From the IMG/VR virus record IMGVR_UViG_2740892047_000005: a stretch of 19,034 bases of DNA, one strand, 5' to 3'. The notes under the pieces are model-generated. The model had not been told where the DNA came from. It did no database searches and saw only the letters and a program-made list of their open reading frames with translations. The DNA is from a virus. Lineage: Duplodnaviria > Heunggongvirae > Uroviricota > Caudoviricetes. The position numbers and the translations under genes were made by a program. Of this stretch, positions 862 through 11,523 are shown piece after piece. Position 1 is the first letter of the stretch. Each line of letters opens with the position of its first letter.

Positions 862-1068
862 TTAGTGATTCAGGCCGTTGCCGCGTCCGTCGAGAAAAAC
901 TTCCACGAGCAAGTCACGGGTATAAGTGCGCTCGATGCCGCGATGCAGATAAAGCCGTCCGCGTAAATTAGCTGATGCAGTCCAGGTACCATCTTTGTGT
1001 TTGACCAGCATTCCTGGCATGACCGCACCGCGATTAACGGTCTGCGTTCCGTAATGTTGATGAACCAT
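862..1068 (-). CDS. Small hypothetical protein (68 aa) in the kil/cIII position of the pL operon
   Basis: Intact ORF with a strong RBS (GCAGGAGTTTTT-ATG on the minus strand, from rc of 1069-1080). Placed between gam and the putative pL. I do not recognise the sequence as lambda Kil or CIII, so function is inferred from position only. Confidence 0.5.
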   Translation of the reverse strand: MVHQHYGTQTVNRGAVMPGMLVKHKDGTWTASANLRGRLYLHRGIERTYTRDLLVEVFLDGRGNGLNH

Positions 1069-1336
1069 AAAAACTCCTGCCCGTAAGCTGGGCTGCTGAA
1101 CAAATGAGGGGTTGCGCAGTATCTGGCGGTGGATGGCCGCCGGTTGTCATAACTAAGCCGCCTCGTTGAAGCGACTAAGGTATGAAATGTTGAGTTGATT
1201 TCAGCTGGTCACACCGACGTTCACGCGTCCGTTTCATCCCTCGCACTCCCCGAAGCCTGCTGAAATTCAAGCTGCGGATCTAAGCGGTCATCGCAACGGT
1301 GAATCAGGTGGTTGCCGTATCGTTGCGTTGTTGCGA

Positions 1337-1385
1337 TATGGTGATAATAGCTATTGCTATTGGTGATATCAATACTTATTGCTAT
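1337..1385 (-). promoter_or_regulatory. Candidate pL promoter with two operators (OL1 1347-1360, OL2 1372-1385)
   Basis: On the minus strand: -35 TTGATA (plus 1367-1372), 17-bp spacer, -10 TATTAT (plus 1344-1349). Two 14-bp sites, ATAGCTATTGCTAT (1347-1360, near-palindrome ATAGC-N4-GCTAT) and ATACTTATTGCTAT (1372-1385), are 25 bp apart and share the motif of the OR sites. Seen directly in sequence; function is inferred. Confidence 0.45.
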
Positions 1386-1510: not shown

Positions 1511-1538
1511 GAAAAGAAAACCCGGCGCGGTTGCCGGG
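1511..1538 (-). terminator. Rho-independent terminator after the lipoprotein gene
   Basis: Hairpin cccggcgcggttgccggg (1521-1538). On the minus strand it is followed by a U-rich tract (complement of gaaaagaaaa, 1511-1520), immediately downstream of the lipoprotein stop at 1547. Confidence 0.5.
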
Positions 1539-1546
1539 TATGATTA

Positions 1547-1927
1547 TCAGTCAGCCCAACCTGATTTCGAGTTTATTTGGGTTTCTGACATTGTGTATTT
1601 CTTAATCGTGTCATCGTCAAAAAGAATAGTAAGTTCTTTTTTCGTACCGTTCGTTCCATTATGGAATAATCCATAGAATGGAATAAAAGTGGTGCCATTA
1701 ACTTTTACTTTTGCAAAGGCGTACTTCCAGATCTCGTTTCCACTGTCAGTATATGAAACAGCATCAGGAGAACCAAAGTAAGATTTAACCTCATTCTTGG
1801 TTGTTTTACCTTCCTGAAGTTTAGACTGGACACTAATTTCAGTTTCATTTTTGAGTTGCTGGTTGCCTGAAGAAGCACACCCAGCCAATAGAGATGCCAT
1901 CATGGCAGCGATTAGGATTTTTCTCAT
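1547..1927 (-). CDS. Lipoprotein (126 aa) with signal peptide and lipobox LLAGC; AT-rich moron between OL and cI (rexAB position)
   Basis: N-terminus MRKILIAAMMASLLAGC has a signal peptidase II lipobox. The mature part is S/T/N/K-rich and reminiscent of small BamE/OmlA-like lipoproteins (not verified). Lies 229 bp downstream of cI on the same strand, with a terminator after it. Confidence 0.8.
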   Translation of the reverse strand: MRKILIAAMMASLLAGCASSGNQQLKNETEISVQSKLQEGKTTKNEVKSYFGSPDAVSYTDSGNEIWKYAFAKVKVNGTTFIPFYGLFHNGTNGTKKELTILFDDDTIKKYTMSETQINSKSGWAD

Positions 1928-2959: not shown

Positions 2960-3187
2960 ATGACAAATCAAACCATTCAACTCGCAATCAGTATTACAGG
3001 TAGTCAAAAACGACTGGCAGATCTATGCGGTGTAGCCCAACCCACAGTTTGGCGTTGGCTACACGGTGGCGGAATTGATGCCCGCTATGTAATGAAAATT
3101 GTCTCAGCCACTGGTGGAAAGATTAAACCAGCAGATATTCGTCCCGACCTCGCACCATTGTTTAACGCGAGTAATTCTGCCGCCTAA
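2960..3187 (+). CDS. cro: Cro-like HTH regulator (YdaS/DUF1019-like), 75 aa
   Basis: ORF track 2954..3187; preferred start is ATG 2960 (MTNQTIQLAISITGSQKRLADLCGVAQPTVWRWL...) with SD TAGGA at 2948-2952. Divergent from cI across the operator array. HTH resembles YdaS-type Cro analogues (from memory). Confidence 0.8.
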   Translation: MTNQTIQLAISITGSQKRLADLCGVAQPTVWRWLHGGGIDARYVMKIVSATGGKIKPADIRPDLAPLFNASNSAA

Positions 3188-3211
3188 ACTGCGGCGTTAA
3201 CTGATAAGGCA

Positions 3212-3757
3212 ATGACTATGCAACCACTTACATACCAACAGACTAGCGGATTTAGCCCGACTGCGGTGATAAATCGTTCTCAAACAAAACAGGCGCCAGG
3301 CCACGAAAAAATCCGTGATGCCGTTCGCGCCTGGTCGGCTGCAGATAATCAGGATGTTGTTGCCGCACTCATTGTGAATGAGTATCGGGAGCAGGGCGGC
3401 GGCACCATCGATTTCCCTGATGATGTCAGCCGTGCACGCCAGAAGCTGTTCCGCTTCCTCGATAACAAATTCGATTCTGAAAAATACCGAAATAACGTGC
3501 GTGAACTGACCCCGGCAATTCTGGCGGTACTACCGCTGGAATATCGCGGCCACCTGGTTGAGCAGGATAGCTACATGGCTCGGCTGGCTGAAATGGAAAA
3601 GGAACTCAGTGAGGCAAAACAGGCTGTCATTCTCAACGCACCACGCCACCAGAAACTGAAGGAGATGAGTGAAGGCATTGTGTCGATGTTTCGTGTGGAC
3701 CCGGATTTGGCTGGTCCACTGATGGCGATGGTCACCACCATGCTGGGGGCAATATGA
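3212..3757 (+). CDS. YdaT-like protein (CII-position regulator of Rac-type immunity regions), 181 aa
   Basis: Segments IVNEYREQGGGTIDFP and RELTPAILAVLPLEYRGHL resemble E. coli Rac YdaT as I recall it. Immediately downstream of the cro-like gene and upstream of O. Confidence 0.75.
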   Translation: MTMQPLTYQQTSGFSPTAVINRSQTKQAPGHEKIRDAVRAWSAADNQDVVAALIVNEYREQGGGTIDFPDDVSRARQKLFRFLDNKFDSEKYRNNVRELTPAILAVLPLEYRGHLVEQDSYMARLAEMEKELSEAKQAVILNAPRHQKLKEMSEGIVSMFRVDPDLAGPLMAMVTTMLGAI

Positions 3758-5818: not shown

Positions 5819-6796
5819 TTAAATTGCAGGATCTTTTCCAACGGCAAGGAAAGGTTCTTGGTCTAGTGCAGTAAACGAAGCTTCGTTATTAAGCAAACGA
5901 ATAAAATATAATTTTTGTCTTTTGGTGGATAACTCAATTAACCCTGCTTGATTTATAATTATATTTCTTCCTAATATTGGGAAGTTTTGTATTAAACGCT
6001 GAATGTTAGCGATGGTTATAGTTCCGCTTTTTATTAGAGAACTGTTTGCTGTTGTAGCTAGTTTACGCATAAAATTTCTATTTTTATGCATATCATCAAA
6101 TATACCAAGTGGGTTTTGCAAGTTAGAAGTATCTAGGATATTCAATCCAATTATATGCGGTGTCGCTGTTGCTGCTAAATTATTAATTATTTGCTCGAGT
6201 CCATATACTCGCTCTAATAAGTTAATGTTTAAAGCATAGTATTTATTATTAAAATAAAAGAAATCAACATTTCCGTTTATATCAATACTGTCATGGTTAA
6301 CTTCGTCTAGTGTTCGTCCATTGGCAGAGAAATAGGATAGTCTTGTTTTTTTATGCAAAGATATTGGGTATTTATGTTGATAAACTACAACTCCATTACC
6401 TTGCCCATCGCAGAGATAGTATACAATTCCTTTAACAGAAGATAAGTCTTGCTGTTTGAAATCAAAATCAGGAGGGGTGTTATTAACTCCGAAATTAAGT
6501 ACATCTGGCATTTTTGCTAGAGCATCTGGGAGATGGTTTATTACATTATAATCATATTCGTAAACTTGTTTATCTCTATTTAGAAGGGAGGATACCAACG
6601 GCAAAAAGTTTTGACCAGCATTAGGGGCGATAACATCACGTTTAAGTGATTTGCTAAAAGATTGGGTTAATTTTTTTTCTGCACCAGGTTCTAATGCTAC
6701 TCGGTATATTTGTGTTATCCCTTTGTGTTCTGCAACGAAAAAGGCTTCACCAGAGATGTTGGCAGAATTTAAGATGTTATCTATTGCTGTAAACAT
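5819..6796 (-). CDS. Hypothetical 325-aa soluble protein, second gene of the AT-rich two-gene cassette; candidate defence effector (possibly KwaB/DUF4868-like, unverified)
   Basis: Intact ORF with RBS GAGGG 4 nt before ATG 6796. Starts 15 bp after the stop of the upstream membrane-protein gene on the same strand. No Walker A, no GS...DxD nucleotidyltransferase motif and no obvious nuclease motif seen by eye. N/I/L/K-rich, consistent with low-GC origin. Confidence 0.8.
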   Translation of the reverse strand: MFTAIDNILNSANISGEAFFVAEHKGITQIYRVALEPGAEKKLTQSFSKSLKRDVIAPNAGQNFLPLVSSLLNRDKQVYEYDYNVINHLPDALAKMPDVLNFGVNNTPPDFDFKQQDLSSVKGIVYYLCDGQGNGVVVYQHKYPISLHKKTRLSYFSANGRTLDEVNHDSIDINGNVDFFYFNNKYYALNINLLERVYGLEQIINNLAATATPHIIGLNILDTSNLQNPLGIFDDMHKNRNFMRKLATTANSSLIKSGTITIANIQRLIQNFPILGRNIIINQAGLIELSTKRQKLYFIRLLNNEASFTALDQEPFLAVGKDPAI

Positions 6797-6811
6797 AATG
6801 CCCTCATTATA

Positions 6812-7411
6812 TTAAACAATCTTTGCGAGACAAGTGTCATTATCTATTTTTATATATTTTATAGTGCTTTTATTATTTATTTCTCCACGACATATTATCA
6901 CAAATTCTTTTTTTCCGCGGTCGTTAATATTCGCTCTAAAAATTCTGAACCCTAATAGTGCAAGTGACGGATTTGAATAAAATCGATTTGTTTTAACATA
7001 AATCATTCCGATTGCAATTATCATTATTAATAGATTCAACATTGTTCGTTTGCTATTTACATCAGTAAAGACTAGTGGCATGACATAAGTTGTCAGGAAC
7101 TCTAAATGTTCATGGCTCTCGTTTTTTACGTCGGAAACAGTACATGCGACAGACCAACCAGAGTTAAATGATAAAAACAAATATAAAAATATAAAAAAAC
7201 CTGCCACCATCATTATAAAACTAAATAAAAAAACTATATTTTTGGGTGTGATTTTTGAAATGAATATAGCAAAGTCTTTATTGTTATAAGTTGAAATTAT
7301 AGTAAATATATTTTTATCATATGACATTATAAATAGAGAAACAAATAATAGCCATAGAGATAATATATATAGCGCATACTTTAAAGCTGTTCTATTTTTC
7401 ATGTTTTTCAT
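6812..7411 (-). CDS. Predicted multi-pass inner-membrane protein (about 4 TM helices), first gene of the AT-rich cassette; candidate sensor/membrane component (possibly KwaA-like, unverified)
   Basis: Hydrophobic segments ALKYALYILSLWLLFVSLFIMSY, IVFLFSFIMMVAGFFIFLYLFLSF, LEFLTTYVMPLVF, MLNLLIMIIAIGMIYV, then a ~55-aa charged C-terminal tail. Start uncertain: ATG 7411 (MKNMKNRT...), ATG 7402 or GTG 7426 (ORF track). Confidence 0.75.
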   Translation of the reverse strand: MKNMKNRTALKYALYILSLWLLFVSLFIMSYDKNIFTIISTYNNKDFAIFISKITPKNIVFLFSFIMMVAGFFIFLYLFLSFNSGWSVACTVSDVKNESHEHLEFLTTYVMPLVFTDVNSKRTMLNLLIMIIAIGMIYVKTNRFYSNPSLALLGFRIFRANINDRGKKEFVIICRGEINNKSTIKYIKIDNDTCLAKIV

Positions 7412-8362
7412 CTCTTGGGGAAACACCGTTTTGATACCGTTGCCAGCGAATATAACACTTTAATTAATTACGGTAAGTAACTTATAACAGTCAATAGATG
7501 TAAATAGAGATGGTGTGGAATCATTACTTGATGCTTTGGCACGCTACCGCCACAAACTCGTTGTGGTGAGTCTGTGGTATGTAGTCAAAACATAGATTTG
7601 CTGTTGTAATGTTACACCTGCATGGGTAACAAAATCTAGTGCGATACACATAGCCACTGACCATCTATACTGGTTTAATATACAGCATTTTATGACGATT
7701 CTCAATTATGAAACTAACTATTTTACAACCAGTTATGGATATCTATGCTTTTATGTACTAAAAATTCTTTAGTTACAGATGTATTGATGACGAGAAATTG
7801 CTAAAGCAAGATGAGTAAGGAACTAAATCAATAAAGTGGGGGCGGGGGGAGTTCGAGTGGCTAGGAGCATAGCGCTTGATTACTTTTGGTGGTTGAAAAA
7901 TGTTCGGTTGGGTGTCGCTAGGTGACTAATAGCTAAATTGGGAGATATACATATATAATATGAAATAAATCCCCACTTAATGCTTGTGAAATATTTATGT
8001 GACAAGCGGGTGTTCTTATTGATATTAAAATTCAATAACAGTGAGTTTTTATTCTTTTCTAAGTTTTGTAAATTGTTCTCACAGAGAAGGTTTAATTGTA
8101 TGTGCCTATATTTTTTTCTAGTGAATATAATGTCGGAATATATTAATATTGGCATATTCAGCAATGACTTCAAATATTCTTGATTTTCGATAATCAACTC
8201 GCCATAATCTCGTTGCTGTCGGCCTGAACATCCGGCGGTGGGGTTGCGCTAAACGGGGACGTTTATGCGCACACACAATCCAAACTCTCTTCTCCCTTCA
8301 CAGATGCAGAAATGCACCTGCGATTTTTTGTATTCTGCGTTTTACCTCTACGGAGGTGAAGC

Positions 8363-9767: not shown

Positions 9768-9852
9768 AGTCAGAGATAACAATCAACTAATACTGTTTTG
9801 TTGATTTTTGCTTGTAATTGGCGTTCTGGTCTGATTTTTGTGGAGTAAGTTG

Positions 9853-10236
9853 ATGCGTGATATTCAGATGGTTCTTGAGCGTTGGGGAGCGTGGGCGGCT
9901 AATAATCATGAAGATGTGACCTGGTCGTCCATTGCCGCCGGTTTTAAGGGATTAATTCCTTCAAAAGTAAAATCTCGCCCGCAATGTTGTGACGATGACG
10001 CGATGATCATTTGCGGGTGCATGGCCCGTCTGAAAAAGAACAACAGCGATTTGCACGATTTATTAGTAGATTATTATGTAGTCGGTATGACATTCATGTC
10101 ACTGGCAGGTAAGCATTGCTGCTCTGATGGTTATATCGGGAAAAGGTTACAGAAGGCTGAGGGCATAATTGAAGGGATGTTAATGGCATTAGATATCCGG
10201 TTAGAGATGGATATCGTTGTTAATAACTCTAATTAA
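9853..10236 (+). CDS. quuD: Late-gene antiterminator Q (quuD-type), 127 aa
   Basis: ATG 9853 with SD GGAG (9842-9845): [34 protein letters not shown]...[18 protein letters not shown]... Cys-rich zinc-binding pattern of Q proteins. Matches DLP12 QuuD as I recall it. ORF track starts at 9838. Confidence 0.88.
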
Positions 10237-10252
10237 TATGCCAATTGTTTAC

Positions 10253-10415
10253 TAAAAATTATTAAAAATGGGGCGTTGCAACGCCCCCAAAAATAAAGGG
10301 TAATATATAACAGAAGGTTTATATAGTTAGAAGCAAGGTTGTGCTCCTAAAGGAAGTGGCTTGAGGGAGCCACTTATATGTTGGGGAGGCAAAGCCTCCC
10401 GCAACATATCTTTTT
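10253..10415. terminator. Intergenic hairpin cluster between convergent Q and nmpC: likely nmpC terminator(s), possibly also the PR'/qut/tR' region
   Basis: Perfect palindrome GGGGCGTTGCAACGCCCC (10270-10287) followed on the minus strand by a U-rich run (rc of ctaaaaattattaaaaat). Further hairpins agtggcttgagggagccact (10355-10373) and gggaggcaaagcctccc (10384-10400), the latter followed by a T-run on plus (10411-10415). Strand assignment is uncertain. Confidence 0.4.
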
Positions 10416-10425
10416 CGTAATCAGA

Positions 10426-11523
10426 TTAGAACTGGTAAACCAGACCTACAGCAACGATGTCATCAGTGCTTACACCGAGTGCTTTAGTGAAGTCATTTTT
10501 GTCAAGCAGGTTGATTTTGTAATCAACGAAAGTAGACATATTTTTGTTGAAGTAATAGGTTGCACCTACATCAACATATTTGACTAAGTCCTGATCGCCC
10601 CATACTCCAAGATCCTTACCTTTAGATTGCAGGTAAGCAACGGACGGACGCAGACCGAAATCGAACTGATATTGTGCAACAGCTTCGAAGTTTTGAGCTT
10701 TATTAGCAACGAAGTGATCAGCAAATACAGTCATATTCTGGGTTTCAGAATAGGTAGTGGCCAGGTAAATGTTGTTAGCGTCATATTTCAGACCTGCGGC
10801 CCAAACTTCTGCATTTTTACCGGAAGCAAATACTTCAGGAAGAACTTTCCCTGCATTAACTTGAGTGTCGGTACGATCAGATTTTGCATAAGTTGCACCG
10901 ATACCGAATCCTTCGTATTCATAGGTAGCAGAGAAACCGAAGCCATCACCGTTACCTTCGGTGTAGTTATCGAAATCGCTACGATCGTTTTTGCCTTGGT
11001 ACTGAGCAGCAAAGTTCAGACCATCAACCAGGCCAAAGAAGTCGTTGTTACGATAGGTTGCAACACCAGTGGTGCGACCAGTCATGAACACATCTGTTTG
11101 GGTCCAGGTATCGCCACCGAATTCTGGCAGAACGTCAGTCCACGCACCGATGTCGTATGCTACACCGTAGTTACGGCCGTAATCGATGGAGCCGTAGTCA
11201 CCGAATTTCAGGCCAGCGAAGGCAAGACGGGTTTTATCTTTGGAGGAACCTTGAGATTCAGCGCGGTTGCCTTTGAATTCATATTCCCACTGACCGAAAC
11301 CAGTCAGTTGATCGTTGATTTGGGTTTCACCTTTGAAGCCAAGACGGGCATAAGTAGTATCACCATCATCTGCATCATTAGAGGAGAAGTAGTGCTTAGC
11401 ATTAACTTTCCCGTACAGATCCAGCTTGTTACTGTCTTTATTATAAATTTCAGCTGCCTGAGCAGACATCGCCATCAGTACTGATGCAGCTACAGCAGAA
11501 ATTGCCACTGTTAATTTTTTCAT
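10426..11523 (-). CDS. nmpC: Outer-membrane general porin of the OmpC/OmpF/NmpC family, 365 aa, intact
   Basis: Signal peptide [23 protein letters not shown], then [24 protein letters not shown]... and C-terminal ...VAVGLVYQF (terminal Phe typical of beta-barrel OMPs). Convergent to Q, between Q and the lysis cassette, as nmpC is in DLP12. Confidence 0.93.

Follow-up and report, generated by a model that had tools for sequence, protein, structure and literature searches.

The window analysed here, the whole 19,034-nt stretch of viral DNA, belongs to a lambdoid (pro)phage. A PHROGs scan of its ORFs identified bet-gam-kil, cI, cro, a cII-like gene, O, P, ninB, rusA, Q and morons, with Q as the sole antiterminator gene. 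The genes and morons are as follows.

Off the left end to 485, minus strand: bet
490-786: gam
862-1068, minus strand: kil, 68 aa, the first gene of the pL operon (phrog_294, E 1.3e-37), with the ribosome-binding site AGGAG at ~1078-1074
1547-1927, minus strand: lipoprotein-like moron, 126 aa (phrog_3135), between cI and pL
2160-2849: cI
2960-3187: cro
Without separate coordinates: a cII-like gene of 181 aa, then O and P
5819-7426, minus strand: reverse-oriented AT-rich moron
Upstream of Q: ninB and rusA
9838-10236: Q, followed by lysis genes and terminase

Relatives have their kil homologues annotated as Kil or as cell division inhibitor. The lipoprotein-like moron has a strong terminator of its own at 1520-1539 (minus strand), just upstream of pL, and at its site other members of the family have ASCH-domain, SIR2 or different genes. 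The moron at 5819-7426 consists of two genes (325 and 204 aa; phrog_36735 and phrog_7312) between P and the nin genes, and could be a defence cassette. A 365-aa gene in reverse orientation (10426-11523, minus strand; phrog_410) occupies the usual moron site immediately after Q, and between it and Q, upstream of the phrog_410 gene, is a terminator-like hairpin (10270-10287, minus strand).

The left operon begins with a ~270-nt untranslated leader (1069-1346), which runs from pL to kil. A preliminary description of this DNA had placed pL here, and we found the assignment to be sound: it is the region's best sigma-70 match, lying on the minus strand (10/12 matches in a consensus scan), the operator-like ATTGCTAT repeats around it recur at OR (2880-2935), and Kil (phrog_294) is the first gene downstream. 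Transcription would start near 1337. From there the leader consists of a 5' segment (1337 down to ~1200) and a two-hairpin module (1188 down to 1123), after which kil follows. The features of the leader are these.

1344-1372, minus strand: pL, with -35 TTGATA at 1372-1367, a 17-nt spacer and -10 TATTAT at 1349-1344
1200-1337, minus strand: 5' segment, ~135 nt, non-coding, in the slot that put, or N plus a terminator, takes in related phages
1214-1235, minus strand: GAAACGGACGCGUGAACGUCGG, a short hairpin (predicted P3) that resembles put stem I, CGAACGGCNCG...GUCGG
1175-1237, minus strand: 20-codon ORF encoding MKRTRERRCDQLKSTQHFIP, with ATG at 1237-1235 and TAG at 1177-1175, an accidental frame
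1148-1184, minus strand: hairpin A, 15 pairs with two internal mismatches and a 3-4 nt loop, base CAUAC/GUUAUG
1125-1141, minus strand: hairpin B, GGCGG-CCAUCCA-CCGCC, nearly invariant
1034-1150, minus strand: 38-codon ORF encoding MTTGGHPPP..., its ATG inside the module, overlapping the kil start

We found bases 1040-1337 in 2235 of 5426 complete E. coli genomes. Sixteen sequenced phages have the leader as well, among them 4A7/Bievrevirus, Perceval and the PhiR series. In comparisons with prophages that have a different immunity region, homology ends at ~1337 or ~35 nt inside; such an endpoint is the usual mosaic boundary of an immunity region. No gene was found between pL and kil in the relatives inspected, and a literature search for the leader sequences themselves found no paper. 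The diversity profile of the leader and kil is uninformative because diversity is uniformly low along both.

The preliminary description had reported that no ORF of N size lies between pL and the first early-left gene, and this is confirmed. With a minimum of 20 aa, the longest ORF inside 1069-1346 is 38 aa and the other large one is 31 aa, the latter being the 20-codon ORF as extended in the ORF listing by an upstream TTG at 1270; an N gene would be an ORF of ~90-130 aa and the first gene of pL. Twenty residues cannot accommodate the NusA- and RNAP-binding C-terminal regions, and no family relationship to N was found. The 20-codon ORF had been named as the only candidate; it exists, but a second small ATG ORF, that of 38 aa from 1150 down to 1034, had been overlooked. 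An intact N-like gene elsewhere in the window, which would have spoken against the earlier account, was sought by comparing 20 ORFs of the window with PHROGs and by tblastn with N and Nun proteins, and none was found. The absence of N is real and family-wide. The observation behind the preliminary description is thereby confirmed, and its interpretation is partly supported, as set out below. N-less lambdoid phages are already known, namely HK022 and HK639, and LLS is discussed in PMC12315714.

What is both solid and new in 1069-1346 is the hairpin A/B module, combined with the loss of the terminator normally found in front of it. The stretch 1120-1196 folds with a z of -4.8, and none of 200 shuffles was as stable. 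Across 50 distinct sequences, 98.1% of the module cells are paired (97.6% for hairpin A and 99.6% for hairpin B), compared with at most 47% in slid controls. Seven pairs show changes on both sides, and 104 cells have double changes vs 29 ± 4 in shuffles (0/500). The base of hairpin A is conserved, and its interior varies between phages yet always pairs; a C-G to U-A change occurs inside the E. coli family itself. Variation in hairpin B is limited to G-U.

Of the whole leader, only the module has homologues beyond the family: they occur in phi80, HK225, HK639 and phages of Enterobacter, Klebsiella and Salmonella. A genome scan adds Citrobacter, Leclercia, Kluyvera, Lelliottia, Trabulsiella, Scandinavium and many Enterobacter species, and hairpin B is conserved from Escherichia to Salmonella, Klebsiella, Enterobacter, Citrobacter, Leclercia and Kluyvera. 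Copies elsewhere in our set include L002 3001-3065, L006 3501-3565, L007 2499-2564, L250-L253 and L255-L280. The module is strand-specific (90 bits sense vs 24 antisense); scores of its model range over 68-91 bits in the pL sense vs 13-30 bits in the antisense, and each early region has one copy, with none in the pR operon. Rfam 15 gave no match in the whole window at gathering thresholds, and for 1000-1420 at E<=10 it gave chance-level matches only (E>4). The module is an RNA element of the pL transcript and is absent from Rfam. We infer that it may serve the downstream kil/cIII-type genes as a processing/stability or translation-control element; for example, it may contain an RNase III-type hairpin with an AUG sequestered in its base.

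The AUG of the 38-codon ORF is contained in the base of hairpin A. The nucleotides of this ORF occur in other frames or lengths in phi80, HK225, HK639, S9-5 and CobraSix, and there is a 1-nt deletion in L029 and L087. Because the ORF is read in different frames across phages, the constraint falls on the RNA and not on the peptide. A conserved MTTGGHPPP peptide acting by polyproline stalling was rejected on the same evidence, with S9-5, CobraSix and L029 using other frames. Just after hairpin B, at 1095-1122, the window differs from most relatives by a divergent patch and by a 2-nt deletion, the latter shifting its MTTGGHPPP ORF out of the kil frame. Many relatives have this ORF, or a longer GTG ORF, in the frame of kil, and a 'Kil' of 95-125 aa appears in some annotations. 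An extended Kil isoform, with a frame open from GTG into kil in about half of the relatives, was also considered and was rejected on account of polymorphic stops and frameshifts.

No terminator-like site is predicted in 1069-1346. Outside the family, a GC hairpin followed by a U run lies directly upstream of the module in 67 of the 72 distinct contexts that are not next to put, and two of the five exceptions are near misses. Where the module stands directly downstream of put, 0/3 contexts have an upstream terminator, and in the window family the count is 0/30. In the window, the U tract is reduced to the vestige CAUUUCAUACC. The annotated order in phi80 is pL-nutL-N-tL1A-module-kil, and its tL1A-tL1B region (JX871397) is homologous to 1188-1123 of the window, in the same orientation and upstream of kil-type genes; the 'terminator' of HK639 at 33104-33132 is homologous to the same stretch. 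In phi80 and HK639, however, the module is preceded by an intrinsic terminator and a gene, whereas in the window no terminator precedes it. In HK639 hairpin B is annotated as a terminator and a U run follows it; no U run follows hairpin B in the window.

Because the first pL gene and its terminator, the tL1 that an N-type gene normally overrides, are both missing from the window family, we read expression of the proximal left operon as N-independent. The pL transcript would run through the ~135-nt segment, then through the module (hairpin A from 1184 to 1148 and hairpin B from 1141 to 1125), and then into kil-gam-bet; the proximal operon would need no antitermination and would be expressed once repressor is removed. 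We give about an even chance to this reading as a whole, in which the leader is the N-independent, terminator-less start of a common E. coli prophage left operon, the 20-codon ORF is accidental and the module acts as RNA.

There is a precedent in the N-independent lambda nin5/byp phages, in which early genes are likewise expressed without N because they lack the terminators that it would override. Those phages are laboratory deletions affecting the right operon, whereas the loss in the window is natural, family-wide and in the left operon, and the window family retains lambda-type distal terminators. In phage 4A7, a complete member of the family, the early-left DNA is 97% identical to lambda from orf61 through gam (L001 1294-4069 vs lambda 30418-33193). 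This DNA of 4A7 contains terminator-like hairpins (L001 2140-2162 and 1551-1565), one immediately after exo and a second good site, GGAGCUACAGGCUCC-U6, further on. We take the position downstream of exo to be that of lambda tL3, pKD46 carrying lambda 31088-33241 'with tL3'. In lambda, tL3-type sites are passed by N-modified polymerase. Phages like 4A7, having no N, would either tolerate attenuation of xis and int or have another read-through device. Full expression of these distal genes may still require a read-through mechanism, which counts against the passive reading of the leader.

Antitermination elements of both known kinds were sought in the leader. Patterns of boxA are at or below chance in the window, and neither the leader nor the DNA just after cro contains one. 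Local alignment of the leader RNA with the pR operon reaches a score of 17 at best, below the shuffled mean of 19.4, so there is no pair of the nutL/nutR or putL/putR type. An inverted pair at 1308-1329 and 3206-3227 was considered as nutL/nutR and was rejected, its alignment score being below the shuffled mean. The window shares with the lambda-type N/nut phages (lambda, P22, phi21 and phi80) the layout of cI, OL/pL, leader and then kil, gam and bet, and its bet and gam are lambda-like; it differs from them in having no N, no boxA/boxB, no nutR counterpart and no tL1 terminator.

HK022-type put acts via the beta' zinc-binding domain and gives terminator read-through in cis. We collected 46 distinct put RNAs from IMG/VR and aligned 28 of them for a covariance model; the aligned RNAs show clear covariation in stem II. 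The model recovers HK022 putL at 94.6 bits, HK639 putL at 91 bits and HK022 putR at 45.4 bits. In the window, it reaches no more than -2.2 bits within 1060-1345 (E 6.9 on 286 nt), and it gives no match in the leaders of L001, L004, L005 and L087. The invariant stem motifs, CGAACGGCNCG / GUCGG of stem I and GGCG...CAAU of stem II, are not in register in the leader. HK022-type put is absent from the window leader. The comparison with HK022 and HK639 has two sides: these are also lambdoid phages without N, their element stands right at the 5' end of the pL transcript, and some put phages have the two-hairpin module and kil directly after put, as they come after the 5' segment here; but real put RNAs score 45-95 bits, and the window's 5' segment is about twice as long as put and has no detectable structure. 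As a separate observation, put RNA is widespread, with at least 46 distinct variants from a single 15-mer scan (IMG/VR contigs L129-L248).

Two likenesses to put were followed. CGGCAA(C/U) in the 5' stem-loop, along with CAGGAAUGCGGCAAU in variant L087, was considered for its resemblance to put stem II and was rejected as homology, as the model is negative in L087 and in the window and the motif lies in the loop and not in the 3' strand. The predicted P3 hairpin GAAACGGACGCGUGAACGUCGG is a weak lead to put stem I. A composite stem-I-like motif, GAA(A)CGG(A)CGCG...CGUCGG, occurs only in true put elements and in the leader family within 5.4 Mb of loci, and in 8 of 200,000 shuffles; it counts as a lead only because the pattern was written after seeing both sequences.

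The 5' segment itself, taken as 142 nt, is present in 2210 of 5426 complete E. coli genomes (41%), almost always with at least 95% identity, and carriers include O157:H7 and O55:H7 strains. No annotated feature lies under it among the matches listed. The segment is Escherichia-specific and is joined at the transcription start to at least four different immunity regions. A scan of genome contigs that included other genera, where homologues of the module are abundant, turned up no diverged copies of the 135-nt segment. Its folding is no more stable than that of shuffles (z +0.19 for 1195-1338 and z -0.9 for 1238-1338). In the predicted helices P1-P3, the frequent polymorphisms are all wobble-compatible and one-sided and the disruptive ones are singletons, with little divergence in the family; there is no double compensatory change, and the expected chance of this polymorphism pattern is ~1 in 16. 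The apex and 3' arm of P2 consist of AUUUCAGCAGG (1258-1269, minus strand), a stretch complementary at 10/12 pairs to CCAGCUGAAAU (1200-1211); this came to light through a chance Rfam alignment and is a possible alternative pairing.

Because relatives keep the lambda-type downstream terminators, it is possible, though on balance rather unlikely, that the 5' segment (1337 down to ~1200) is a new cis-acting antiterminator or anti-Rho RNA, an analogue of put. Such an RNA would modify the polymerase leaving pL; distal tL3-type terminators and Rho would be overcome, and xis and int would be expressed. In ~40% of complete E. coli genomes it would hold that slot in place of put and N/nut. In lambdoid mosaics, occupying the same slot usually signals a functional analogue: four IMG/VR contigs (L134, L136, L230 and L244) have the order pL-put-module-(small gene)-kil with neither a gene nor a terminator in between, and the window order is pL-135 nt-module-kil, which is put's exact slot. 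The segment begins at the inferred transcription start, as putL does at the 5' end of its transcript (PMC9378689), and a read-through reporter assay in rpoC mutants is described in the same paper. The retention of the segment intact across at least four immunity types and 41% of complete E. coli genomes, the left-operon terminator hairpins of lambda kept in family members without N, the wobble-compatible high-frequency polymorphisms of the helices and the stem-I-like motif otherwise found only in true put RNAs are all consistent with an active RNA.

Set against this are a folding energy at the level of shuffles (z -0.9 to +0.2), the absence of double compensation, the put model at -2.2 bits with GGCG and CAAU of stem II missing in register, and a motif test for stem I that was designed after seeing the data. 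The pR operon has no second copy of the segment, although the HK639 record likewise annotates putL only. Conservation of the 5' segment is uninformative by itself because it is no higher than that of neighbouring kil. The preliminary description had raised RNA-based antitermination as one explanation for the lack of N. The part of this idea that would invoke the HK022/HK639 put does not hold, and a different RNA mechanism has circumstantial support from the position of the segment and from the downstream terminators.

Lambdoid phages are the textbook case of early antitermination and, to our knowledge, only two solutions to it are known, N/nut and put. The window leader is a third arrangement that is neither of these, in 2210 of 5426 complete E. 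coli genomes. If, as in the reading we prefer, the leader is passive, with neither terminator nor antiterminator, the N module would be easily dispensed with, and this would bear on how kil and the red genes respond to derepression in many prophages, including those of EHEC. If the 5' segment is active, it would be a new polymerase-modifying RNA. The hairpin A/B module is a covariation-supported motif that is new to Rfam and spread over Enterobacteriaceae prophages.

The 20-codon ORF proved to be polymorphic. Among 91 distinct relatives, its start is ATG in ~13, GTG in ~77 and GGG in 1; its TAG is present in ~31 and is replaced by CAG in ~46, and in the CAG variants the frame continues, in frame, into kil. 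Indels across it include variants with a 5-nt duplication, a 1-nt deletion and a 2-nt deletion. The T/C difference that makes or removes the stop is one unpaired position of the conserved RNA hairpin. The peptide and its extended conceptual translation had no matches in PHROGs and none in Pfam. A 25-aa version used in tblastn against 50,697 phages matched only 16 phages with the same leader, and a search of 5.8 billion proteins with the peptide returned no N-like protein, only 41 sporadic ORF calls that cover this DNA. Judged by this variation, with start, stop and frame all polymorphic among close relatives, the 20-codon ORF is a chance reading frame and no gene, one of the possibilities that the preliminary description had offered.

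Translation of the small leader ORF(s) might itself matter, the sequence of the peptide being irrelevant; ribosomes would then shield the C-rich, G-poor stretch at ~1200-1175 from Rho, or open hairpin A, and so tune kil. The AUG or GUG is preceded by GGAG at 8 nt, and the 3' half of the ORF is a 26-nt G-free, C-containing stretch with flanks whose C/G ratios are >1. In addition, about half of the relatives have a frame that stays open from GTG into kil, and the P2 apex (1258-1269) can alternatively pair with 1211-1200 inside the ORF. We nevertheless consider this role quite improbable: one variant starts with GGG, the Shine-Dalgarno sequence is weakened to GGAAG in several and is paired within the predicted helix P2, ORF length ranges from 20 to >120 codons with frameshifts tolerated, and no terminator lies downstream.

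It is very unlikely that the 20-codon ORF is an N remnant, as had been proposed from its arginine-rich N-terminus. Its likeness to lambda N does not go beyond composition: lambda N, P22 gp24, phi21 N, phi80 N and Nun, used as tblastn queries, gave nothing at the ORF, with no alignment even at E<=50, and the proposal is further weakened by boxA patterns at chance and by the lack of a repeat in the pR operon. Its most specific form, in which the ORF is the N-terminal stump of an N-type gene and a deletion removed the rest of N and the terminator, so that the arginine-rich motif came to be joined to the U tract in front of the module, is barely credible and is already largely refuted: five of the first eight residues are basic and stand N-terminally, which N proteins share, and the end of the ORF coincides exactly with the terminator-U-run-CAUACC of other phages, with the partial U tract CAUUUCAUACC left, and the corresponding place in phi80 has N, but no related peptide on an N-like body is present in the 50,697 phages or the 5.8 billion proteins, the 5' segment never continues into a gene in the 5426 E. 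coli genomes, and there is neither an upstream boxA/boxB-type site nor a nutR counterpart.

The known prophage small RNAs AgvB, AsxR and Pas were also considered for the leader and were rejected, since they are located in the late region downstream of PR'. On the right side of the window, only weak intrinsic-terminator-like sites are predicted on the plus strand from pR to Q, a point in favour of the N-independent reading. Transcription from pR has to traverse the moron at 5819-7426 on its way to Q. The stop codon of cro lies in the loop of a hairpin, GCCGC-CUAAACU-GCGGC (3179-3195), which resembles the common tL1-type hairpin GCCGCCUAACCAGCGGC but is without a U run, and which might be a Rho-dependent tR1-like site or a relic.
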